A stretch of 40,336 nt of DNA from a virus (Duplodnaviria; Heunggongvirae; Uroviricota; Caudoviricetes). Positions 24,200-38,829 of the stretch are shown here, piece after piece. The DNA lies in the IMG/VR virus record IMGVR_UViG_643348545_000005; one strand, written 5' to 3'. Within the stretch, counting starts at the first letter, position 1, and each line of letters opens with the position of its first letter. Both the position numbers and the translations under genes were made by a program. Under the pieces are notes generated by a model. That model was given only the letters and a program-made list of their open reading frames with translations. It was not told the DNA's origin and did no database searches.

Positions 24200-25242
24200 A
24201 TGAGTAAACGCAAAAATACACCGGAAAGCGGGGGCAGGATTCGCTACACGATGCACTGAAATCAACGCCTGCACTCAGCGCATTCACCTTTGATGGGCCC
24301 TATGAAGTCAGCCGCATGGATCTCCTGGATAACATGTCATGTGCAGATAACGGGCGCTACTTTGATACCCCCATGGACTGGAACGCTATCGCCCGTGCAT
24401 CCCGTCGTGCGTCCTGGCATCAGTCGGCTTTGTACTTCAAGCGCAACGCCCTGAACGGGTGCTTTGTTCCTCACCCTCTGCTGTCCCGCCAGGCGTTTTC
24501 AGCGTTTGCGCTCGACTGGTTTGTGTTTGGTAATGCCTATCTTGAAGTGCGGCGTAACAGGCTGGGGGAACCACTCCTGCTTCGCCCGGCACTGGCAAAA
24601 TATACACGCAGGGGAAGTGACCTGGATACCTACTGGTATCTCAACGACGACGGTACGGAGTTCAGTTTCAGGAAAGGGACTGTGTGCCACGTGCTTAATC
24701 CTGATATTAATCAGGAGATCTACGGGATGCCGGAATATATCGGCGGGTTGCTGTCTGTCAGCCTGTCAAACTCAGCGGATACATTCCGCAAACTCTACTA
24801 CGATAACGGCTCGCATGCCGGGTGTATTATCTATGTAGGCACATCTCAGGCGAATGCGGAAAGTGTCGAGGCCATTAAAAAAACGCTTACGGATTCCCGT
24901 GGTCGCGGGGCGTTTAAAAACCTGTTTCTACATGCACCGGGTGGTGGCAAGGATGGTGTGCAAATACTGCCGTTCCAGCAGATAACCGCAAAGGATGAAT
25001 TCCTGAACATCAAGGGGAGCGCCCGCGACGATATCCTTGCTGCCCATCGTGTACCACCTCAACTGATGGGGGCAATGCCTGACGGGAATGCGGCGTTTGG
25101 TGACGTTGAAAAAGCGGCGAGAGTGTTTTTCATCAACGAGTTGCAACCTGTCATGGAGGCCATGAAGCATGTCAATGAATGGCTTGGCGTTGAGGTGATG
25201 CGCTTTAACCCCTATGCCCTGCTTCTGGATAACGCCAGCTGA
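24200..25242 (+). CDS. Q: Portal protein Q; apparent frameshift near the 5-prime end (possible pseudogene or sequencing error)
   Basis: ATG at 24200 (5 nt after the P stop) encodes MSKRKNTPESGG... and hits a stop at 24257-24259; the portal-like remainder is in another frame that is open from 24208 (first in-frame ATG at 24316). The frames meet at a G5 run at 24230-24235. Confidence 0.6.
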
Positions 25243-25269
25243 CGCGCTTCGCTTGTCTGCTGCTTCGCC

Positions 25270-25292
25270 GGGGCATAAAAAATTTATGCCCC
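25270..25292. terminator. Bidirectional hairpin terminator between convergent Q and the 167-aa gene
   Basis: Perfect 10-bp stem ggggcataaa/tttatgcccc with a 3-nt loop. Confidence 0.5.
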
Positions 25293-25307
25293 GACTCTCC
25301 AGCTCTC

Positions 25308-25811
25308 TTAACGGAATGCGGATGGCGTTCTTCTTTGCAGCTTGCTGATAATATGCATCTTCATACTGTTTACTATCGGCAGCCATTCCCTGTCACCGTC
25401 TCCGTTGATGACCACGCGAATGGAGGTATCATCTTCCACGCGAACCCGAAGAGATACACCGTCTTTTCCGACGGAATGTAACTCCATTGCCAGGACTATG
25501 TTTACCGACTCTCCTTCATCGTGTGAGTCAACCCATGTTCTTACAGCCATCCGGAATATGTTATCTGTGTCGGTTGCAATCATATTTACCGGAAATGGCC
25601 TGAAGTCCCGATCGTTTCTGCACGGAAACCCCGTATCAACGTAACGATGATGCTCGCCGTCTTTGTCTTCCCATGTCTCTGAAGGCAATTCCAGCCACTG
25701 CTCATAAAAAGCAACCAGCTTTTCAGCCTGATTGCGCAGAATCCCTGTAACCTCCCGCCTCGCGTCCCGGCTCTTTTTGTTTGCCAGGTACAAATCGCGA
25801 AAATGGCTCAT
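25308..25811 (-). CDS. Hypothetical protein (167 aa), cargo gene at the portal/cos side
   Basis: Clean ORF with ordinary codon composition; no family I can recognise; lies in the variable region of P2-like phages. Confidence 0.5.
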   Translation of the reverse strand: MSHFRDLYLANKKSRDARREVTGILRNQAEKLVAFYEQWLELPSETWEDKDGEHHRYVDTGFPCRNDRDFRPFPVNMIATDTDNIFRMAVRTWVDSHDEGESVNIVLAMELHSVGKDGVSLRVRVEDDTSIRVVINGDGDREWLPIVNSMKMHIISKLQRRTPSAFR

Positions 25812-26356
25812 GTCGCTCTCCTTTGGTCTGTTTATGCCAGCCTGTATTCTGCGCTCACCTCATATTGTGCGCAAGTTTTCACCCGTGAATGACTGATACT
25901 TTAAATTCTATTAACTTTATGATTTCAGTGATTTTTGTCTCTCTTTTTTATCCCGTTCGTCACGTCCGTTTCCCTCCCGATCTCCGACCTCGCCAGACGC
26001 AATCAGACGCATTCTGACGGCCTGTTTCCCTGACCATGTTTTGATGTGGTTTTTCAAAACTGACTTTACTGCGTGCGTATCACGCGCCATACGACCCCAA
26101 ATAAAGCAACCCGCCTTCCATCCCTCAATTCGGGCGCCCTTCCCTCGTCGCCTGCGCGCTGCAATTGCCTCGTTTTTCGTGCACCGTGCAAACCGGCCTC
26201 AGCCAGCGCCGTTACTGGGCTGAATGGGGATGAAACACATAAGAAAAATTGTGCAATTTCGTGCGCTTTTGTGCATTTTTTATCTTGCGATTTTTGGGGG
26301 TGGGTGGTGATGATAATCATCTGTCTGAATCAGTGGTGTATTGCCGGGTGAGAACT

Positions 26357-26893
26357 GTGAAAAATTACTCATATCCTTATTTAACTTTTGTCACGCTTTC
26401 TGTTTTGGGGGGGATTTTTCTTTTTATTTGGTGGCGAAACGATGTTTACAGAATTACCTACCTTTATTCGTTCACGACAAACTGCCTTGTTTCAGTGTCT
26501 GTGGTGCTTTCGGTTTTTGTCTCACTGTGCCTGTTGAAAAAGAACCTGGTTGATCGGTCTAAATTTACCGGGGTTACATCGTATCTTAAGTTTTTTTCGG
26601 GTATGTGCCTTCTTACCTGGATGATTCTGTTTACCCTCCTGGTTACGCTGATATATTTTCTTCCGGGTGAAGATTCATTCTATTCCGCTCCCTATGAGTA
26701 CAGTCGCGGTAGCTCAAAAAGTTGTTCAGGGGCATTTGTTGATGATCCTGATTTGCAAAAAACAATCTTTATTTGCTACCCATACGGTGACTATCAGGAT
26801 GGTAATGTGATTTATGTGAAGAAGCGTGTGAATGCGCTGGGTGCGGTGGTCACCTATGCATACGCGACAAGCGGCCGATTTCGGTTTGACTGA
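26357..26893 (+). CDS. Hypothetical AT-rich membrane protein (about 3 TM helices plus a roughly 85-aa soluble C-terminal domain)
   Basis: ORF in an AT-rich island; hydrophobic segments; start uncertain (GTG at 26357 with a GGGTGAG RBS, or the internal ATG near 26599). Confidence 0.35.
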   Translation: MKNYSYPYLTFVTLSVLGGIFLFIWWRNDVYRITYLYSFTTNCLVSVSVVLSVFVSLCLLKKNLVDRSKFTGVTSYLKFFSGMCLLTWMILFTLLVTLIYFLPGEDSFYSAPYEYSRGSSKSCSGAFVDDPDLQKTIFICYPYGDYQDGNVIYVKKRVNALGAVVTYAYATSGRFRFD

Positions 26894-26942
26894 AAAAAGA
26901 AATCCTGTGTTACCCTCGCTGCTGAGGGTAACATGCGTGAAG

Positions 26943-27198
26943 TCATCGCCCGGTTCTTGAGCTGATAATGCTTTGCGTCAGCAGCTGCCAGCCCTCTTTC
27001 TGTTGCCCGTACTTGTCCTGATACCTGTTTACCTGCAAGTTTCCGTGCACCAGAATCAGATCGCCTTTTCTGTGTTTTGCCAGTTCTTCGTGCTGCTTCC
27101 CGAATGAAATAAGGTAAAGCCACATTGTGGTTGGCTGTTCTGCGCCATGGCAGGGTAGTGATACCGCCAGTTGTGCCGTTGTGACGTTTGAGGTAGCC
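26943..27198 (-). pseudogene. SSB-like OB-fold protein gene, 3-prime portion (interrupted by the IS)
   Basis: Translation ...TSNVTTAQLAVSLPCHGAEQPTTMWLYLISFGKQHEELAKHRKGDLILVHGNLQVNRYQDKYGQQKEGW aligns with the SSB core (W..V.LFGK...RKG..V.I.G.L..R.W.D..GQ); the frame runs up to the IS left end. Confidence 0.45.
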
Positions 27199-27252
27199 TG
27201 AGTTTAACGGACACTCCTTCCTGAAATAGAATGGCATCAGAAGGAGCTAATA

Positions 27253-27555
27253 ATGAGCAGAAAAACCCAACGTTACTCTAAAGAGTTCAAAGCCGAAGCT
27301 GTCAGAACGGTTCTTGAAAATCAACTTTCGATCAGTGAAGGCGCTTCCCGATTATCTCTTCCTGAAGGCACTTTAGGACAATGGGTTACCGCCGCCAGAA
27401 AAGGGCTCGGTACTCCTGGTTCCCGCACGGTGGCTGAACTGGAATCTGAAATTCTGCAACTGCGTAAGGCGTTAAATGAAGCTCGCCTTGAGCGAGATAT
27501 ATTAAAAAAAGCAACAGCGTATTTTGCACAGGAGTCGCTGAAAAATACGCGTTAA
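27253..27555 (+). CDS. IS3-family transposase OrfA (HTH)
   Basis: 100-aa ORF with the typical IS3-family OrfA leucine-zipper end (...LERDILKKATAYFAQESLKNTR). Confidence 0.85.
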   Translation: MSRKTQRYSKEFKAEAVRTVLENQLSISEGASRLSLPEGTLGQWVTAARKGLGTPGSRTVAELESEILQLRKALNEARLERDILKKATAYFAQESLKNTR

Positions 27556-28409
27556 TCGAACAATGGCGACAACAATTTCCCATTGAAGCGATGTGTCAGG
27601 TATTTGGTGTATCCAGGAGCGGTTATTACAACTGGGTACAGCATGAACCCTCAGACATAAAACAAAGTGATGAGCGGCTAAAACTGGAGATTAAGGTGGC
27701 ACATATCCGCACTCGCGAAACATATGGAACCCGGCGGCTCCAGACGGAGCTGGCAGAGAATGGCATCATCGTTGGTCGTGACCGACTGGCACGTCTTCGT
27801 AAGGAGCTAAGGCTACGCTGTAAGCAGAAACGCAAGTTCAGAGCGACTACGAACTCGAACCACAATCTGCCAGTTGCGCCAAATCTGCTGAACCAGACGT
27901 TCGCTCCTACAGCACCAAATCAGGTCTGGGTGGCGGACCTGACGTATGTTGCCACACAGGAGGGATGGTTGTACCTCGCTGGCATCAAAGATGTTTATAC
28001 GTGCGAAATTGTCGGCTACGCCATGGGAGAGCGCATGACAAAAGAGCTGACAGGTAAAGCCCTGTTTATGGCGCTCAGGAGCCAGCGCCCACCTGCCGGG
28101 CTAATCCACCACTCTGATCGAGGTTCACAGTACTGCGCATACGATTACCGGGTCATACAGGAGCAGTTTGGTCTGAAAACATCAATGTCGCGTAAAGGTA
28201 ACTGTTACGACAACGCTCCGATGGAAAGCTTCTGGGGAACGCTGAAAAATGAGAGCCTGAGCCACTATCGTTTTAATAACCGGGATGAAGCCATCTCAGT
28301 AATACGGGAATACATTGAGATTTTCTACAATCGTCAGCGTCGTCACTCTCGTCTGGGGAATATCTCCCCGGCAGCCTTCAGGGAAAAATATCATCAGATG
28401 GCTGCTTAA
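27504..28409 (+). CDS. IS3-family transposase OrfB (DDE catalytic domain), expressed as an OrfAB fusion by -1 frameshift at A AAA AAA G (27504-27511)
   Basis: The -1 frame is open from the slippery site and encodes an rve-type integrase core (...VADLTYV...HHSDRGSQY...NAPMESFWGTLKNE...). Confidence 0.8.
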   Translation, partial: KKSNSVFCTGVAEKYALIEQWRQQFPIEAMCQVFGVSRSGYYNWVQHEPSDIKQSDERLKLEIKVAHIRTRETYGTRRLQTELAENGIIVGRDRLARLRKELRLRCKQKRKFRATTNSNHNLPVAPNLLNQTFAPTAPNQVWVADLTYVATQEGWLYLAGIKDVYTCEIVGYAMGERMTKELTGKALFMALRSQRPPAGLIHHSDRGSQYCAYDYRVIQEQFGLKTSMSRKGNCYDNAPMESFWGTLKNESLSHYRFNNRDEAISVIREYIEIFYNRQRRHSRLGNISPAAFREKYHQMAA

Positions 28410-28442
28410 AAAAAGAACAAATGGTAGTGTCCGCTATTGCCA

Positions 28443-28527
28443 GTACACCTCAGTTGGTTCCTTTGGTTGTTCTCCTTGTGTTCGGGTCTGCTGCCAGTCG
28501 TCCCTCTGTTGCAACCTGTGTTGGCAT
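28443..28527 (-). pseudogene. SSB-like gene, 5-prime fragment on the other side of the IS
   Basis: ATG at 28527 with a GGGAGA RBS encodes MPTQVATEGRLAADPNTRRTTKGTN, matching the SSB N-terminal GNLGQDPEVRYMPNG signature; the frame does not join cleanly to the 3-prime part. Confidence 0.35.
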
Positions 28528-28559: not shown

Positions 28560-28898
28560 TTAGATGACTGGCAGCTCTTCGCCAGCGCCGTAGATAAACA
28601 GAATTCGCTTCATGATTTCGCTTCGCTTGCAGTCCTGGATTACGGACGGCTTTTGTTGCTGTTCAGCCCGCCGCTCCAGCTCCAGTCGTTCCTTTTCCGT
28701 TGGCTTCCGGTAATGCGTTATCTTGTCCGTGTACCCGTCCACAACCAGCAGCCCTTCGCGTACCATCTTTCCGGCGGCCTGATTAATGATGGTCCTTTTC
28801 ACGCCCAGTTTTTCAACCAGCTCTGGCGCGCTGAAGCGTGCGTGCGTTTCCAGGTAGCGTAAAATGATTACCTTTCCGGTCATTCTGGGTGTCTTCAT
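28560..28898 (-). CDS. Hypothetical winged-helix DNA-binding protein (about 112 aa)
   Basis: AGGAG RBS before the ATG at 28898; the FSAPELVEKLGVKRTIINQAAGKMVREGLL segment looks like a winged HTH; ATGA overlap with the upstream gene stop. Confidence 0.45.
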   Translation of the reverse strand: MKTPRMTGKVIILRYLETHARFSAPELVEKLGVKRTIINQAAGKMVREGLLVVDGYTDKITHYRKPTEKERLELERRAEQQQKPSVIQDCKRSEIMKRILFIYGAGEELPVI

Positions 28899-29065
28899 TT
28901 GGCGGCTCCTTCGTTGTTCCGGCGTTCGCGGAGTTCGGTCAGTGCTGCCAGTAAATTTTCCCACCATGTTTCTTCCACAACCGGATTTCGTCGTGAAAGC
29001 AGCTGCTGCGCCGACTCAATCATTTTCGTAAGCTCTTTGTCGCTGATCCTCCTGATGTCGTTCAT
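28895..29065 (-). CDS. Hypothetical small protein (about 56 aa)
   Basis: GGAG RBS 7 nt upstream of the ATG at 29065; translationally coupled to the downstream gene. Confidence 0.4.
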   Translation of the reverse strand: MNDIRRISDKELTKMIESAQQLLSRRNPVVEETWWENLLAALTELRERRNNEGAAK

Positions 29066-29113: not shown

Positions 29114-29518
29114 TTACCTGCGTGATTGCCTGCTGGCGGCCGAATGCACATAGCTGACAATTGCCGCTTTTCGGTTAACGACGGCCAGCGTTCTTGCCAG
29201 TTCTTCGTTGAGTTTTCTGGTCTGTTTTTCGTGGTATGCCTGCATGATTTTTCCTACGGGAGTCAGTGGTTCAGGCTCTGATATGGCGCGACGAGGGCGC
29301 ACGGCAACGATGAATGCGCTTCTGTCGGTGTTGGTTCTTGCAGTCAGGATGTCGGTCATGACGGTATCTGTGCTGCGATCGGGGTTTGCGATCGTGATCT
29401 CCAGTTCGTCGCCTGGCTGTGGTCGAACACTGACGCCGCTCAGCGTCAGTGCCGGAATGCGTCCACTCATGATGGCGCTGAAATCATGGTGCTGGAGTAC
29501 ACAATGGAATCGTGTCAT
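29114..29518 (-). CDS. Hypothetical protein (134 aa) translationally coupled to gene A
   Basis: Start overlaps the A stop (ATGA); same position as the small ORF downstream of A in P2. Confidence 0.5.
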   Translation of the reverse strand: MTRFHCVLQHHDFSAIMSGRIPALTLSGVSVRPQPGDELEITIANPDRSTDTVMTDILTARTNTDRSAFIVAVRPRRAISEPEPLTPVGKIMQAYHEKQTRKLNEELARTLAVVNRKAAIVSYVHSAASRQSRR

Positions 29519-32037
29519 GGGTTCACCTCCGGTTGATCTGCTGCCACCAGGCTTCGTGATTTCTCATCCCAGTGCACAATCCGCCCGTCAGGCAGGCGAA
29601 CGCGTGCACCTCTGTGTACGGAAAGTGCTGCGCCACTGTGTAGCTCCTCGCCCGTCGCGCTCAGTGCCGACTTGATTACGGTGGTGGTGACGTCAGTCAG
29701 CGGCAATGCTGTACGCACATGTATGACGTCATCGGGCGTGGTGGGGCCGCCGGTTTTCACGGTTTTTGTGTCAGATGGCGCATCTTTCAGCTGCCTGGTG
29801 AGTTGTTTTCGCTTTGTGGGGGTCAGTGACCTTAACCACTCACCCAAATCACCTCCCGGGACGACCAGTTTTTGTTCTTTCCTGGTTTCCGGTGGTGGGT
29901 TTTTACCCTCTCCGGTGTCTGTTTTTTCATCATGGGGACAGTTATTGCCACGAGTCCAAGGTGCGGCAAAGCCGCACTCAACGTCAAAACCCTCGTCCGT
30001 GCGGTCTTCGTTTTCCGGCTTACGTCTGACCAGTTTCCAGGTGTCCGGGTGGGTGCATATGGTGTGGCGCTCCCCGAGTAACGGGGCGCGGACGCCGTAA
30101 ATGCGCTGCGGGAATTCGCCGTAGTCGTTGGCCTCATCTGCGGTTTCGTATGCGGTGCGGATCAGGTACAGGTTGCGTGGAATGAGCACGCCGCCCTGAC
30201 GGTTGATGTAGGTGGCAAAACACCCCACGTCAGCGGCGGCCAGAATGGCGTCAATGTCGTCATGGTCCAGGCGCTTCGGTGATGCGGGGTTACGCTCCAT
30301 TTGTCCGGCAAGGCGGCGGAGTTCACGCCATACCTGGCGGGGCGGGATACCGAAGAACTGGAACTGCCGGATGCGGTGGAGACTCGCCCAGGCAATGGCG
30401 TTTTCCACGGTTTCCGCCATGGTTTTTCCCGATTCTTTATCGGCGTAAGGTTTGCCGGTTTTCGGGTCATTGTCGTGAAAGGTGCTGGCGTCCAGGTTCT
30501 TGCCAATATAGGTTGCGATGTAGCTTGCCGGTGTGCCTTTTGCCGGGTCGATTTTTTCGCACTTGAAGCGCGGAGAAATATCATTCCCCAGTTCTGCGCG
30601 ATCTGATTTGATTGCTGCGTCACGCATGATTTCAATGATGCGTTCTTCATTGTCCGGGGCGGTGAATACCAGCATGTGCCAGTGCGGTGTGCCGTCATGG
30701 TGTGGCTCAACGGTGCGCACCCCGTACCAGCTCAGGCCTTCTTTGTTGAGTTTTTTTCTTGCAGCTGCAAAGACGTCGTAAACCAGATAATCACTGGCAT
30801 CGCGCACGGTGGCACCGTTGTATTTCGGGTTCAGGCTGCCGTCCTCGTTTACGCTGTGAAAGCGGGAAGGGCAGGTCACTGTCACGAAGAACGCGGAGTC
30901 ACCACGCGATTCGGCGACCTGTTCCATCCCTCTGACGCAGGCCATCATCTCGTTGCGGCGGTTGCGCGGATTCCCCAGCCCTGACCAGTACACGTCCTCC
31001 AGACTCAGGCGTTCACCGTCTTCGTTTTCAATGTCCCAGCTTTTGAGAAAATCACGGGTGCGCTGGCGTTTCTCCCGGAATTCCTGGAGTGACTCATGGC
31101 TGATGTAGGGGGATGCCTTGCGCGATACTCTTCCGGCGGCACGCAGTAATTCCTCCCGCCAGAGATCAGCGAGGTGGCGCAGCTGGTTGTTCCACCAGGT
31201 AGCGCAGGTGATACGCATTACCGCGCCCGGTACCAGTTCAGGGTCTGGTGCCGTGCGGCGGTCACGTCTGATCTCGAGTGACGGCCAGTATGGTGGGTTC
31301 ACGCCCAGTTTTATTGCCATGCGCGCCAGCTGCTGGTAAGTCAGCAACCAGGTAAACAGGTTATCGTCGCCTTTTCCTGTCCGCTCAGTAACTTCATCAC
31401 ATATGCGTTCCAGTTCGGTGGAAAATGCCGCCGCCGTTAGTGTGGCAAGGCGCTGAATTTGATCACGGTTGAGTTGTGGCAGCATGAGTAATTCATCAAG
31501 GCGATGGCGTGCTGCGGTGGCTTTGAATGCCGTCGTGGCGAAGCATTCATTCACCTGTTCGATGCGTTTCAGGCGTGTGCGCAGTCCACGGCGAACAAAG
31601 TTATCAGCCACGTGTGTATTGTTGTTTTTCACGCCTTCATGGCGGGCGCTTTGCTGTTTGCGGTTTAAACGCGTCAGATCACGAATGAGCGCGTTGCCAA
31701 GAAACGAGGGCAGGGCGCGAAGTTCTGCCATGGCTTCCGATACCACCGTGGGCGGATTCTCGCGTTTGTGCCGCGCCAGTTTTTCCAGTCTGATCCGACG
31801 CTCTTCGTTGTGGTGAAGGTGCGAATTAATTCGCTTCCCTTCGTCTGTGGTTGTCAGAAAGGCGACGGTTTCTTCATCCAGTCTGGCATCAATGCGAATG
31901 TCCTCGTTGATGTAGCTCTGAATGGCCTGGCGTAATGCGGTTGGCTGTGCTCTGCCGAACGTTTCAGGATCGATAACCGGTAGCGGGGCGTTCCACGGGT
32001 ACGCCAGTTGTGCGTTATGGTCGCTCATGCGTCGCAC
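29515..32037 (-). CDS. A: Replication initiation endonuclease A (rolling-circle nickase)
   Basis: 840 aa; similarity to the P2 gpA family, including TVTCPSRFH and the active-site tyrosine region YIATYIGKN. Confidence 0.9.
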   Translation of the reverse strand: MRRMSDHNAQLAYPWNAPLPVIDPETFGRAQPTALRQAIQSYINEDIRIDARLDEETVAFLTTTDEGKRINSHLHHNEERRIRLEKLARHKRENPPTVVSEAMAELRALPSFLGNALIRDLTRLNRKQQSARHEGVKNNNTHVADNFVRRGLRTRLKRIEQVNECFATTAFKATAARHRLDELLMLPQLNRDQIQRLATLTAAAFSTELERICDEVTERTGKGDDNLFTWLLTYQQLARMAIKLGVNPPYWPSLEIRRDRRTAPDPELVPGAVMRITCATWWNNQLRHLADLWREELLRAAGRVSRKASPYISHESLQEFREKRQRTRDFLKSWDIENEDGERLSLEDVYWSGLGNPRNRRNEMMACVRGMEQVAESRGDSAFFVTVTCPSRFHSVNEDGSLNPKYNGATVRDASDYLVYDVFAAARKKLNKEGLSWYGVRTVEPHHDGTPHWHMLVFTAPDNEERIIEIMRDAAIKSDRAELGNDISPRFKCEKIDPAKGTPASYIATYIGKNLDASTFHDNDPKTGKPYADKESGKTMAETVENAIAWASLHRIRQFQFFGIPPRQVWRELRRLAGQMERNPASPKRLDHDDIDAILAAADVGCFATYINRQGGVLIPRNLYLIRTAYETADEANDYGEFPQRIYGVRAPLLGERHTICTHPDTWKLVRRKPENEDRTDEGFDVECGFAAPWTRGNNCPHDEKTDTGEGKNPPPETRKEQKLVVPGGDLGEWLRSLTPTKRKQLTRQLKDAPSDTKTVKTGGPTTPDDVIHVRTALPLTDVTTTVIKSALSATGEELHSGAALSVHRGARVRLPDGRIVHWDEKSRSLVAADQPEVNP

Positions 32038-36185: not shown

Positions 36186-36406
36186 CCCTTCAGTTCGTCT
36201 GGGTTGGCGAGTATTGCAATCAGTCGTTCAATGGCTGCGCAGGTTTCCTGTGGACAGGTGTGTGTCTCTTTCGCTGTCTCAGTCAGCTCGCGCAGTAATT
36301 CGCAGATATGTGCACGCTCGGCTTTTCTTGCGGCCATGCTGATATGCGCATGATGGTTAGCTGGTCTGGCGGTTATTTCTCTGCCGGGTGATTCGGCTGT
36401 TCTCAT
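36176..36406 (-). CDS. Hypothetical Cys-containing protein (about 76 aa)
   Basis: ATG at 36406 with an AGGAG RBS; the track ORF extends upstream. Confidence 0.4.
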   Translation of the reverse strand: MRTAESPGREITARPANHHAHISMAARKAERAHICELLRELTETAKETHTCPQETCAAIERLIAILANPDELKGCA

Positions 36407-36512
36407 TTGTTGACTCCTGAAAAAAAGACAAAGGGAACCCGAAGGCATGAATGCCTTAATTAATTGCTCGTGTGTTTTCTGGTGTTATTCCGCGCCTGCT
36501 TTCGGCTTCAGG

Positions 36513-36608
36513 TTATTCCCAGATCTTCAGGGCTAACCAGATAAGCGCACTCACCTGAAATATCACCCATACAGTGGCGATGGTGTGTATTGCTTTTACA
36601 TTCTTCAT
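36513..36608 (-). CDS. Candidate small hydrophobic peptide (31 aa)
   Basis: My translation MKNVKAIHTIATVWVIFQVSALIWLALKIWE; below the ORF-track size cut-off. Confidence 0.2.
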   Translation of the reverse strand: MKNVKAIHTIATVWVIFQVSALIWLALKIWE

Positions 36609-36620
36609 AAGGTTTTCGCT

Positions 36621-36746
36621 TTATTTACGGCGTTTATCGCCGGTAAAGAATAATTCGATATCCTTCAGTGTGTAGATAATTCGCATAATGCCGATTGCCA
36701 TAAGCACGGAGATAATCAGAATTACCCATGAAAGAAATATGCTCAT
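36621..36746 (-). CDS. Candidate small membrane peptide (41 aa)
   Basis: My translation MSIFLSWVILIISVLMAIGIMRIIYTLKDIELFFTGDKRRK; start overlaps the stop of the upstream 80-aa ORF. Confidence 0.25.
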   Translation of the reverse strand: MSIFLSWVILIISVLMAIGIMRIIYTLKDIELFFTGDKRRK

Positions 36747-36985
36747 GCGGCTACCCCTGTGAAGTAAGGCTCAACAATTTCACCTTCAAACAGTTCTGTC
36801 ATAATCGACTTTAATTCTTCCAGCGCTTCACGGTCATCGCTGCCCAGTGCGCAGTTGTATAGCCCCATAATTGCGCCGCGCAGTGAGTTACGAAGGCTTT
36901 CATCCTTAGTTACGCCCCGGTTTGCAAGTTCGAAGTGGTAACGCTGCAACGCGTTATTAATAAGTATTTTGTAGGCTTCGATCAT
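36743..36985 (-). CDS. Hypothetical protein (80 aa)
   Basis: ORF in the early operon. Confidence 0.4.
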   Translation of the reverse strand: MIEAYKILINNALQRYHFELANRGVTKDESLRNSLRGAIMGLYNCALGSDDREALEELKSIMTELFEGEIVEPYFTGVAA

Positions 36986-37003
36986 GGCTGAATCCTTTAT
37001 TTA

Positions 37004-37348
37004 TCAGTGCTTGCTTCCCGGATATTGAAAACGCAGGCCGTTGATTAATCTGTCTGCCGTTCTTAAGGCTTCAAAAAATGTGAAATCCTGTCCGAAGTAA
37101 TCATCCCCGCGAGTCAGGGTGAAATTAAATCTGCCAGTAACAGGGCTGCGAAAACTTTTGTGAATAACGATGCCAGTGTCGCCAATCGTCCAGGTGTGCT
37201 TGCCGGTTTGTTTTACCGGGTGACCGTCTGGTGTGGCATGGATTTCAGTGGTTGTGGTCGCACTATTTTTGCGGAAGTGCTGGCGTGCAACGTGGCGTTC
37301 GGCACTTGTTCGAAAATTCTGCTGTGAAAAATTTCCCGGTTTCTTCAT
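37004..37348 (-). CDS. Hypothetical protein (about 114 aa)
   Basis: ATG at 37348 with an AGGGA RBS; the track ORF extends to 37405 without an RBS. Confidence 0.4.
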   Translation of the reverse strand: MKKPGNFSQQNFRTSAERHVARQHFRKNSATTTTEIHATPDGHPVKQTGKHTWTIGDTGIVIHKSFRSPVTGRFNFTLTRGDDYFGQDFTFFEALRTADRLINGLRFQYPGSKH

Positions 37349-37500
37349 AAAAATCCCTACTGCTGCTGTGAATTTGTGCCGGGTTTTTAGCCATGCCCGG
37401 CGCATGGTTTTGTAGTAATTTCGTTACGCCTTGCAATTCTTGCCCGAACTGTTGTAACGATAACCAACCACACAAAGGAGTATTTATGTTTTCTCATAAA

Positions 37501-37764
37501 CTATTTCGGCAATTTGCACTGCATTGAGACTGGTATCGAGTAAACCAGTCGTCGTTTTGGCGGTATTCGCAGTGGAAATGTTTTGTCACGGGAGATGTTG
37601 ATACTCTGCATCTTGACGATGCTGTCTTCCGTTATTTTTTCCTTTATCCACTCAAGTACCGTTACGGCCTCTTCGTAAGAATAATTATTCAGGGCAATCA
37701 ACATTGACTCTGTTGCATCCTGTAATCGTTTCACAAAATAATCCGGAGATTTCTCTTTATTCAT
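37501..37764 (-). CDS. Hypothetical protein (about 87 aa) in an AT-rich island
   Basis: ATG at 37764 with an AGGA RBS; the alternative track start is at 37878. Confidence 0.3.
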   Translation of the reverse strand: MNKEKSPDYFVKRLQDATESMLIALNNYSYEEAVTVLEWIKEKITEDSIVKMQSINISRDKTFPLRIPPKRRLVYSIPVSMQCKLPK

Positions 37765-38220
37765 ATGAAAATTATCCTTACATCCGAATCTGGGCGGTGG
37801 TTTTGGGTTTTGCGTGCTGCCGAACGTGAGCTTGCAAGAAGTGAGGGGTTTCACAGTTTTGTTGATGCCCGTGCTCATGCAGAACTCTTTCGTATTGGCG
37901 CGCGTTCCCCTGTGATTCTTCGCTCTGTAAAAAAATGTGCTCAGTCACTGGTGAATGATAAATATCACCTTGTCTTCTTGGTTACGGAATCTACGTCTGG
38001 TTTTTGCTTGTCACTTTCGTATCCTGAAAACATTCACTTGTATGATGAGGTGTTTGAGTCTTTTGAAGGTGCCGAATCGTTTGCTCAACATCTCTCATAC
38101 GATGTGTTCGAACTGGCTGATATTTATGATTGTTGGGGGTCGCTTATTCATCCCTTGCAACATTCTCGTTTTTACAGAAATGTGTTTGATATTGATGATG
38201 ATCATCCATCAGCCTGGTAG
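37765..38220 (+). CDS. Hypothetical protein (151 aa) in an AT-rich island, antisense to the early operon
   Basis: Long ORF with plausible protein composition; its ATG is back-to-back with the minus-strand ATG (CATATG at 37762-37767). Confidence 0.35.
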   Translation: MKIILTSESGRWFWVLRAAERELARSEGFHSFVDARAHAELFRIGARSPVILRSVKKCAQSLVNDKYHLVFLVTESTSGFCLSLSYPENIHLYDEVFESFEGAESFAQHLSYDVFELADIYDCWGSLIHPLQHSRFYRNVFDIDDDHPSAW

Positions 38221-38304
38221 GCTGCTTGCATAACAACCATTTTCCACAGCATCTGCGGCGAAATCTCATTCCTGGGATTTCGCTGTTGCCGGTTTGTTTT
38301 GATG

Positions 38305-38829
38305 TCACTGGTTGCCTCCACTGTATTGGTGTTGCTCCAGTTTTGACTTTCTTCCTGTGTAAACCCGCTTTCCATTGATGGTCTGGCAGTCTTCTTTGTT
38401 TGCCGGGGAAAACTTTCTTTTCTGTCGGTCGTATGTCCAGTAGCTTTTCCAGTTGTGCCATTCTGGCGGCTCGCATTCTGGTAGTTCGTCAGCCAGCTTG
38501 TCCCACTCTCTGGCGTTAAACCACCACACGCCATCCGAATTTTCATCTTCAGGGTTTGAACGGGTCTTGTGTCCAGGCATCTGATTTCGCTGAAGCGCCA
38601 CGCGCAATGCAGCTTTTGTCAACCCGATATAGGCTGCCCCTTTTTCAAGTGAGCAAAGTCCGGCTACCGGGCCATCCAGTCGCAAGGTTGCCCCTTTTTT
38701 GTAGGTGCGTTTTTTCTTTTCCTCTTGGTGTTCATCGTCGTTTGCCGCGCCAACGGATTCGGTGATGCTGTCGTTTTCCTGAAGGGCTTGTGTGTCAGAT
38801 AACTCTTTATCGGCAATTGACTTCCGCAT
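38305..38829 (-). CDS. First early-operon gene (174 aa); possible Cox/excisionase-like regulator with extensions
   Basis: Divergent from C with a 103-bp intergenic region; AGGA RBS; central segment is HTH-like and has a GVWWFNAREW segment reminiscent of P2 Cox GEYWVYLPAW; larger than Cox or Apl. Confidence 0.35.
   Translation of the reverse strand: MRKSIADKELSDTQALQENDSITESVGAANDDEHQEEKKKRTYKKGATLRLDGPVAGLCSLEKGAAYIGLTKAALRVALQRNQMPGHKTRSNPEDENSDGVWWFNAREWDKLADELPECEPPEWHNWKSYWTYDRQKRKFSPANKEDCQTINGKRVYTGRKSKLEQHQYSGGNQ

Follow-up and report, generated by a model that had tools for sequence, protein, structure and literature searches.

The DNA considered here is IMG/VR record IMGVR_UViG_643348545_000005, a stretch of 40,336 nucleotides that we call the window and that represents a P2-family (Peduoviridae) prophage of Escherichia coli, with P88/Xuanwuvirus as its closest group. 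The interval at 25243-26900, which follows the portal gene, is an ordinary instance of the known P2-family accessory-gene hotspot located next to the cohesive-end site, cos. It holds two genes, one encoding a 167 amino acid protein (open reading frame A, ORF-A; 25308-25811, minus strand) and one encoding a 178 amino acid predicted inner-membrane protein (ORF-B; 26357-26893, plus strand), and between them lies a non-coding stretch of 545 base pairs with no annotated gene (25812-26356) that very probably contains cos. ORF-A and ORF-B are cassettes of one gene each that occur independently and flank the predicted cos. The explanation that we favour as a whole, and that we judge on balance to be probable, is that the hotspot carries two independent cassettes flanking cos, wherein ORF-B would exclude superinfecting phages at the cell envelope and ORF-A would bind another protein. 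An earlier annotation of the same DNA (hereafter the original prediction) had described both reading frames, the AT-rich gene for a membrane protein, the non-coding stretch and a cos-like motif within it, and all of these are present at the positions it gave.

We assign the interval to this hotspot because both anchor genes are in place, the layout is the same as that of P2, a locus with both proteins has been listed in a published survey, and the slot is swapped in relatives. The left anchor is the portal gene, the homologue of P2 Q (24200-25242, plus strand; Pfam Phage_portal, E value 2e-18; 1044 nucleotides in the reference gene). The right anchor is the replication endonuclease gene, the homologue of P2 gene A (29515-32037, minus strand), as annotated by RefSeq in near-identical prophages. 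In P2 the order of elements is portal Q, the terminator tQ, cos, the start of the old-tin transcript, old, tin, orf91 and A, and the old-tin messenger RNA starts about 150 nucleotides from cosR and runs away from cos. An equivalent of tQ is likely present in the window as well. A hairpin with a perfect 11 base pair stem (100% complementary) and a 3 nucleotide loop, flanked by runs of A and T, is located at 25269-25293, the position equivalent to that at which P2 tQ is annotated, and it is likely a bidirectional terminator shared by the portal gene and ORF-A.

The sections of Rousset 2022 (PMC9122126) that deal with the gpA-gpQ interval beside cos count 1,650 arrangements of this hotspot in E. 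coli. Anti-phage systems make up many of them, and the survey also reports non-defence cargo that includes partition systems and a cytolethal distending toxin. One locus in Table S5A of that work encodes WP_000801013 (ORF-B), the single-stranded DNA-binding protein (SSB) WP_032330903, three more hypothetical proteins and WP_032330900 (ORF-A). Thus, a locus holding both proteins is already catalogued there, though it is not characterised, and it is missing from the paper's tables of tested systems (Rousset 2022, PMC9122126). A second study counts this hotspot among the best-studied phage hotspots. The original prediction had placed the interval at the old/tin position of P2, where swappable anti-phage genes reside, and both the P2 layout and these sections of the survey agree with that placement.

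The content of the slot differs strongly among close relatives. The complete interval of 1658 base pairs is found in only 6 of 5426 complete E. coli genomes, whereas the 63 nucleotides after the portal stop codon, which include the hairpin, are kept in approximately 1,140 of these genomes and in 16 phage records. Thus, the locus does vary among syntenic P2-like prophages, as the original prediction had anticipated, and neither of the two proteins matches a structural or packaging protein. The prophages compared are otherwise 94-99% identical over the region from the terminase gene to gene A. In strain DETEC-S792 (our locus L002) ORF-A is absent and a block of 656 nucleotides (25306-25961) is replaced by 3 nucleotides. 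In place of ORF-B, JNEC-KY179 carries a gene for a DUF4760 protein, and LZSFT34 carries a TumE/HVO_A0114 toxin-antitoxin pair. Enterobacter phage phiT5282H has genes for an S8 peptidase and an AAA ATPase in the equivalent slot (locus L014, 3689-6972). These match the PADLOC models IetS (E value 2e-41) and IetA (E value 2e-88), and therefore correspond to a known defence system that is not annotated as such in the record.

The same turnover is evident on a broader scale. There are 66 IMG/VR loci that carry a conserved non-coding repeat motif of the window (GTGCA/GTGCG, described below) and that were retrieved by means of it, and of these and the other loci in the comparison, 58 had 1.5 kb of usable sequence to the right of the motif. 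The right flanks of the 58 loci, which share a common cos core, fall into 12 clusters of unrelated DNA. The points at which cargo is exchanged lie directly against this core, in that homology with prophages that carry ORF-A without ORF-B ends at 26274-26279, where the third repeat finishes.

The assignment of cos is based on collinearity with characterised phages, on position and on conservation across genera, and not on the identity of the cohesive-end sequence itself. P88 (Xuanwuvirus) and phiT5282H (Novemvirus), two phages of different genera with unrelated cargo, share with the window a conserved core of approximately 150 nucleotides (about 26113-26294). When this core was placed in an unguided global MAFFT alignment with the cos junctions that P2 and 186 have after circularisation, the annotated cos 19-mers of these two phages fell on 26134-26152. 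The predicted GC-rich cohesive-end 19-mer (cosN) at this location, on the minus strand, is GGCGACGAGGGAAGGGCGC, and that of P2 is GGCGAGGCGGGGAAAGCAC. Located 19-20 nucleotides from the predicted cos end is a conserved GTTTTTCGTGCACC block (26172-26185, plus strand), and P2 and 186 carry GGTTTTAATGCA at equal spacing. Three GTGCA/GTGCG repeats spaced by 10-11 nucleotides follow at 26246-26276 (plus strand), and at this distance ATGCA occurs three times in both P2 and 186. Hence the overall architecture, a TTTTnnTGCA block 19-20 nucleotides on and three RTGCA repeats some 100 nucleotides on, has the same spacing in all five phages (the window, P2, 186, P88 and phiT5282H). Relative to the portal gene, these elements are on the same side as in P2 and 186. 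The cos core ends on its right with the repeats, and beyond them the swappable cargo of that side starts. A profile hidden Markov model (HMM) built only from P2 and 186 finds its best match in the whole window, on either strand, at 26139-26268 (plus strand). These features point to a cos region at about 26134-26277, with the cohesive end predicted at 26134-26152.

Two results weigh against this part of our reading. The match of the P2 and 186 model has an E value of 0.07 and is therefore marginal. The 19-mer at 26134-26152 agrees with P2 cos at 13 of 19 positions, the best score in the intergenic region (the score against 186 is 11 of 19), but 13 or more matches occur in 11% of shuffles of that region, such that this agreement is not significant alone. 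Furthermore, there is no match to the P2 cos 19-mer with three or fewer mismatches anywhere in the window. The original prediction was very probably correct in suspecting cos within the non-coding stretch, but its candidate, the GGCGAGG...GGGAAAC motif (25968-25994, minus strand), does not survive comparison. This motif is not found in the non-coding regions of P88 and phiT5282H, it is not picked by the P2 and 186 model, and its ungapped agreement with the P2 cos 19-mer (10-11 of 19) is within the range of chance. The cos-like architecture lies some 140 nucleotides further to the right.

Several other observations concern the same stretch. A search with Rfam models and DNA folding predictions gave nothing above threshold for the non-coding stretch. 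A tandem duplication of 10 nucleotides, CAGACGCAAT CAGACGCATT, is present at 25994-26013 in lineage-specific DNA to the left of the cos core, and DETEC-S792 has a single copy. The linear record of P88_4B11 (NC_049391; L004 position 7401, L007 position 7001) is opened inside the conserved core, at ...GGGCTGGAAGGGCA|AAAATTCG. The opening falls about 90 nucleotides rightward of the cohesive end predicted here and may be either arbitrary or a mapped terminus, the ends of the record abut without overlap, and we did not use it as evidence for cos. The ends of the phage 500465-2 record are uninformative because host genes are included.

ORF-A is located on the portal side of the predicted cos and is transcribed toward the portal gene, such that these two genes are convergent, whereas ORF-B is located on the gene A side and is transcribed away from cos. 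Because they are on opposite sides of cos, the two genes would lie at opposite ends of the packaged linear DNA. ORF-A is carried by 11 and ORF-B by 22 of the 5426 complete E. coli genomes, and just six have them side by side. ORF-B is present without ORF-A in at least 16 genomes (L002 is one example), and ORF-A without ORF-B in at least five (for example, L010 and L011). The diverged relatives of ORF-B, in both P2-like and lambdoid phages, are never adjoined by ORF-A, and the relatives of ORF-A have neighbours other than ORF-B. The ORF-A cassette, comprising the gene and some 150 nucleotides upstream of it (25306-25961, minus strand), is present or absent as a block, and the distance from the terminator to cos is approximately 370 nucleotides in most relatives and approximately 942-952 nucleotides in those with ORF-A. 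The original prediction had joined both genes in one candidate module, which is at odds with their positions on opposite sides of cos, their divergent orientation and their independent occurrence.

ORF-A has an ATG start codon preceded by a strong AAGGAG ribosome-binding site, and it encodes a soluble protein with an isoelectric point of 6.1 that is annotated as a hypothetical protein (WP_032330900.1). Searches of Pfam, NCBIfam, PADLOC and PDB sequences yielded no match, and the only family recovered is phrog_5091 (E value 1e-40), a PHROG family with no known function. The description of this product as a protein of no recognisable family is thereby borne out. A word-based search recovered only two clusters, and an exhaustive HMMER scan of 1.84 billion representative sequences recovered about a dozen true relatives (counted as clusters at 50% identity) with lengths of 159-177 amino acids. 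The scan also gave matches between residues 100-160 and cadherin, immunoglobulin and beta-propeller repeat proteins, which we rejected as compositional matches to beta strands. All relatives with readable surroundings are found in the variable parts of P2-like prophages, and two more are on contigs too short to tell. A scan of genome contigs with a narrow alignment of the family recovered one locus, in Erwinia. A relative from Erwinia tracheiphila (43% identity) adjoins the portal gene. In a second lineage the relative lies between the portal gene and cargo that contains HicAB, and in a third it lies directly after the late activator gene ogr and before HicAB. For two distant relatives (L085, 3320-3963; L087, 5725-6359), which occupy different positions in their P2-like prophages, a HicA/HicB toxin-antitoxin pair is encoded no more than about 1 kb away, perhaps by coincidence. 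Thus, ORF-A is an accessory protein restricted to P2-like phages.

The AlphaFold2 model of ORF-A, computed from the alignment produced by the HMMER scan, has a predicted local distance difference test score (pLDDT) of 89 and a predicted template modelling score of 0.84. This confident model shows an alpha/beta fold in which an N-terminal helix of 38 residues precedes an antiparallel sheet, and a further helix forms the C terminus. The closest structural neighbours are alpha-beta sandwiches resembling the FP domain, capping protein and type III secretion chaperones, but none is convincing as a relative. The conserved residues (Y36, L40, L42, W47, D49, Y57, G61, F70, T92 and K151) do not suggest an active site, and there is no catalytic signature. 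These characteristics are consistent with ORF-A acting as a protein-binding factor, and its partner might be a component of the host, of a competitor phage or of a defence system. Exclusion, counter-defence and regulation are all possible roles. One alternative is that ORF-A serves the phage itself, as an inhibitor of host defences or a modulator of lysogeny or packaging, rather than as an exclusion gene. We consider this rather doubtful.

ORF-B was annotated by the Prokaryotic Genome Annotation Pipeline as a gene of 537 nucleotides with a GTG start codon (WP_000801013.1), and this start aligns with the ATG starts of homologues. Its GC content is 42.1%, and that of the window is 53.6%. The protein has three hydrophobic 19-mers by the Kyte-Doolittle scale (at about residues 8-26, 41-61 and 82-102), which are followed by a non-hydrophobic tail of 76 amino acids. 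There is no match in Pfam, NCBIfam, PADLOC or PDB sequence searches, and the last 90 amino acids match phrog_1416 (E value 1e-49), a family of unknown function with a model of 90 positions. The family is narrow, with 43 clusters, and all members with an organism name are from Escherichia, Shigella or Salmonella. Conservation is concentrated in the C-terminal domain, where identity to distant members is 66-70%, versus 39-49% in the transmembrane region. The conserved pattern of this domain is FLPGE-S-Y-APY-Y--GSSKSCSGA-VDDPDL---I-ICYPYG-Y---N-IYV-K--N-LGAVVTYA, and cysteines C123 and C140 are invariant in 13 of 13 aligned members. The loop between the second and third transmembrane segments is the most positive (+4, with four lysine or arginine residues), which by the positive-inside rule would place the C-terminal domain in the periplasm, a location that fits with a disulfide bond. 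Charge distribution and conservation therefore point to a protein with its N terminus inside and its C terminus outside, and with a disulfide-bonded working domain in the periplasm.

Relatives of ORF-B that are 51-58% identical are found in the equivalent slot of further P2-like prophages, from E. coli and Salmonella, about 60 nucleotides past the cos core and in the same orientation. Their neighbours differ, and include ParM/StbB and a YafO-type toxin. A form with 52% identity occurs as an opposite-strand moron between xis and exo in phages 434, 2B8 and mEp332. This lambdoid form is present in 915 of the 5426 complete E. coli genomes and is always annotated as hypothetical. Copies are located at 4965-5531 of L008 (phage 434) and at 3929-4531 of L095. 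In phage 434 the relative of ORF-B is preceded by a reading frame for a putative membrane protein of 56 amino acids, and a search of the window found no homologue of it.

In the window some 80 nucleotides separate the right end of the cos core from the start of ORF-B, and the gene runs antisense to the early/replication operon. A -10-like element, GATAAT, is located about 40 nucleotides upstream of the gene (26312-26317, plus strand) and is conserved in an alignment of diverged P2-type copies. A promoter dedicated to ORF-B and expression in the prophage state are plausible. Transcription away from cos and antisense to the early operon matches the geometry of P2 old-tin. The three helices of ORF-B would hold a small periplasmic beta domain, probably disulfide-bonded, at the inner membrane. 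Most plausibly, the protein is expressed from the prophage and would act at the envelope, where its periplasmic domain might interfere with a step between adsorption and the passage of DNA over the inner membrane and thereby exclude superinfecting phages.

Comparisons with known systems provide a context for this proposal. P2 old-tin occupies the same interval between portal Q and gene A beside cos, and there too the cargo on the gene A side starts just past the core and is antisense to A. In addition, the window carries cargo in a further, smaller slot between the portal gene and cos, where P2 has none. The products show no detectable similarity to P2 Old (an AAA ATPase/nuclease), to Tin or to any validated system of the hotspot. 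A tblastn search of 50,697 phage records that included P2 gave no P2 match for ORF-A or ORF-B, and neither protein has a Pfam domain. Small phage proteins that function at the envelope include T4 Imm and Sp, HK97 gp15 and the Cor proteins of phi80 and N15, which are often morons with their own promoters and which stop genome entry or block receptors. ORF-B would resemble these in kind only.

The nearest functional analogue of ORF-B may be SieA of phage P22, a single-gene inner-membrane protein of about 160 amino acids with three predicted transmembrane helices which the prophage expresses and which prevents incoming phages from delivering their DNA (PMC10883804). The likeness consists of similar size, three predicted transmembrane segments and a predicted location in the inner membrane. 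The conserved parts of the two proteins differ, because that of ORF-B is a cysteine-containing C-terminal domain predicted to be periplasmic, whereas that of SieA is a motif, FxRYPxEAxxFNK, predicted to be cytoplasmic. On reading the ORF-B sequence we did not find this motif, although no pattern search was made.

A number of points weigh against the proposed function of ORF-B. When its family profile was compared with P22 SieA, hhalign returned a probability of 0.4%, which indicates no detectable similarity. The AlphaFold2 model has three long helices and a beta-rich C-terminal domain, but its quality is only moderate (pLDDT of 65), and a fold search gave only generic matches to helical membrane proteins. 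The topology and the disulfide bond are themselves predictions. A scan for consensus sigma-70 promoters called none for ORF-B (or for ORF-A). The prophage may be defective, with a frameshift in its portal gene and an insertion sequence in its ssb gene, such that expression in this strain is not assured. Exclusion is a candidate function for both genes, reasonable but unproven. A small membrane protein of this type might just as well serve as an effector of abortive infection, or in lysogenic conversion in a way that has nothing to do with phages.

The abortive-infection alternative proposes that ORF-B permeabilises or depolarises the inner membrane on sensing a competitor and thereby kills the cell before progeny are made. 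RexB is an example of a small membrane protein involved in abortive infection. A small protein with several transmembrane segments would be at home in a hotspot that is rich in systems of this type and whose variants carry toxin-antitoxin and IetAS systems, and toxic defence genes are typically AT-rich and moved horizontally. However, ORF-B is a single gene, and no partner sensor is conserved over the P2-like slots and the lambdoid morons. Moreover, its best-conserved part is the extramembrane cysteine domain rather than the helices, which suggests a periplasmic interaction and not a pore. The original prediction had also suggested abortive infection, but neither protein resembles a defence family, as none of the profile HMMs in PADLOC-DB v2.0.0 matches ORF-A or ORF-B at an E value of 0.1 or less. 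We consider this mode of action unlikely.

Alternatively, ORF-B might be an envelope protein involved in lysogenic conversion that benefits the host in a manner unrelated to phages, such as stress tolerance, serum resistance or colonisation fitness, with its presence in the hotspot being incidental. Lambda Bor and Lom are envelope proteins of this kind. Such a role would be in keeping with the restriction of the family to Escherichia, Shigella and Salmonella and with the many clinical isolates among its carriers. It would also agree with the non-defence cargo noted for the hotspot in Rousset 2022. However, Pfam and other profile searches revealed no similarity to known virulence or envelope families, and the recurrence of ORF-B in an old-like slot of several P2-like lineages fits competition between phages at least as well. 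This alternative likewise has a small chance of being correct.

Finally, a joint exclusion or abortive-infection module made of both genes is highly improbable, because the adjacency in the window and six complete genomes, and in the one retrieved Table S5A locus with WP_032330900, which also has WP_000801013 (Rousset 2022), is outweighed by the cos core between the genes, their divergent transcription and a distribution that largely refutes the idea.

From about 19.5 kb of the window rightward there are genes for the terminase small subunit, capsid and scaffold, all on the minus strand, which are followed by genes for the terminase large subunit and the portal protein on the plus strand, by the studied interval, and then by minus-strand early genes ending in gene A. 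Genes for a Dam methylase, a Cox-like regulator and an integrase follow beyond gene A. A second stretch of low GC content (42-46%) is present at 36400-38400, in the regulatory region, and encodes a DUF4761 protein, an unassigned reading frame of 151 amino acids and the Cox-like protein; the integrase gene is next, at the end of the window. RefSeq annotates the same gene order in a near-identical prophage of E. coli STEC2018-607. In this closest relative (L001, 5219-6951) the gene for the terminase large subunit is annotated as frameshifted, and therefore this copy may be defective too. In contrast, no frameshift is annotated in the portal and terminase genes of the DETEC-S792 prophage, which seems to be intact. 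In the window the portal gene has a -1 frameshift in a run of A residues (A5 at 24212-24216, versus A6 in two relatives) that leads to a stop three codons in, and the longest intact reading frame begins only at 24316. Either the prophage is defective or the sequence contains a homopolymer error.

Four minus-strand genes between ORF-B and gene A, which encode the SSB, a MarR/'Ren-like' winged-helix protein and two small reading frames, are constant in all cargo variants of the lineage and look like the tail of the early operon rather than swappable cargo. The SSB gene in particular is a conserved gene of the lineage and not cargo. Its 3' part is located at 26943-27188 (minus strand) and its 5' part at 28453-28527, because it is interrupted by an IS3-family insertion sequence of 1264 base pairs (27189-28452, plus strand) that encodes OrfA (100 amino acids) and OrfB (272 amino acids) and is flanked by a 3 base pair target duplication. 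From its length and its OrfA sequence, this element presumably resembles IS600. The winged-helix protein encoded downstream of gene A (28560-28967, minus strand) matches PHROG 142, 'Ren-like exclusion protein', with an E value of 3e-29, and has a weak match to MarR.

Since the hotspot is already known, the value of this locus lies in its cargo. The descriptive features that are new here are the independent cassettes flanking cos, the comparative placement of cos, an ORF-B family domain that is predicted to be periplasmic, and ORF-A as an orphan with a well-folded predicted structure. The placement of cos provides a testable assignment of the packaging site for phages of the P88/Xuanwuvirus type, in which the breakpoints of cargo exchange abut the cos core. 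ORF-A, which is confined to P2-like phages, could be a new inhibitor or sensor. The ORF-B family is widespread, is annotated only as 'hypothetical protein', and recurs in the position that P2 uses for old. Tentatively, this family might represent an unrecognised but widespread class of single-protein, periplasm-facing exclusion factors in enterobacterial temperate phages, wherein a disulfide-bonded C-terminal domain blocks a common step in genome delivery, and ORF-A would be a distinct, newly recognised inhibitor of small size that only P2-like phages carry; we regard this broader view as possible but not the likelier outcome. If ORF-B does exclude phages, it would join the exclusion determinants already described as a compact one that is encoded by a single gene and works through a periplasmic domain. 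If it is true that ORF-B blocks phage entry, then its presence would bear on host range in phage therapy and on competition among prophages in E. coli, Shigella and Salmonella.

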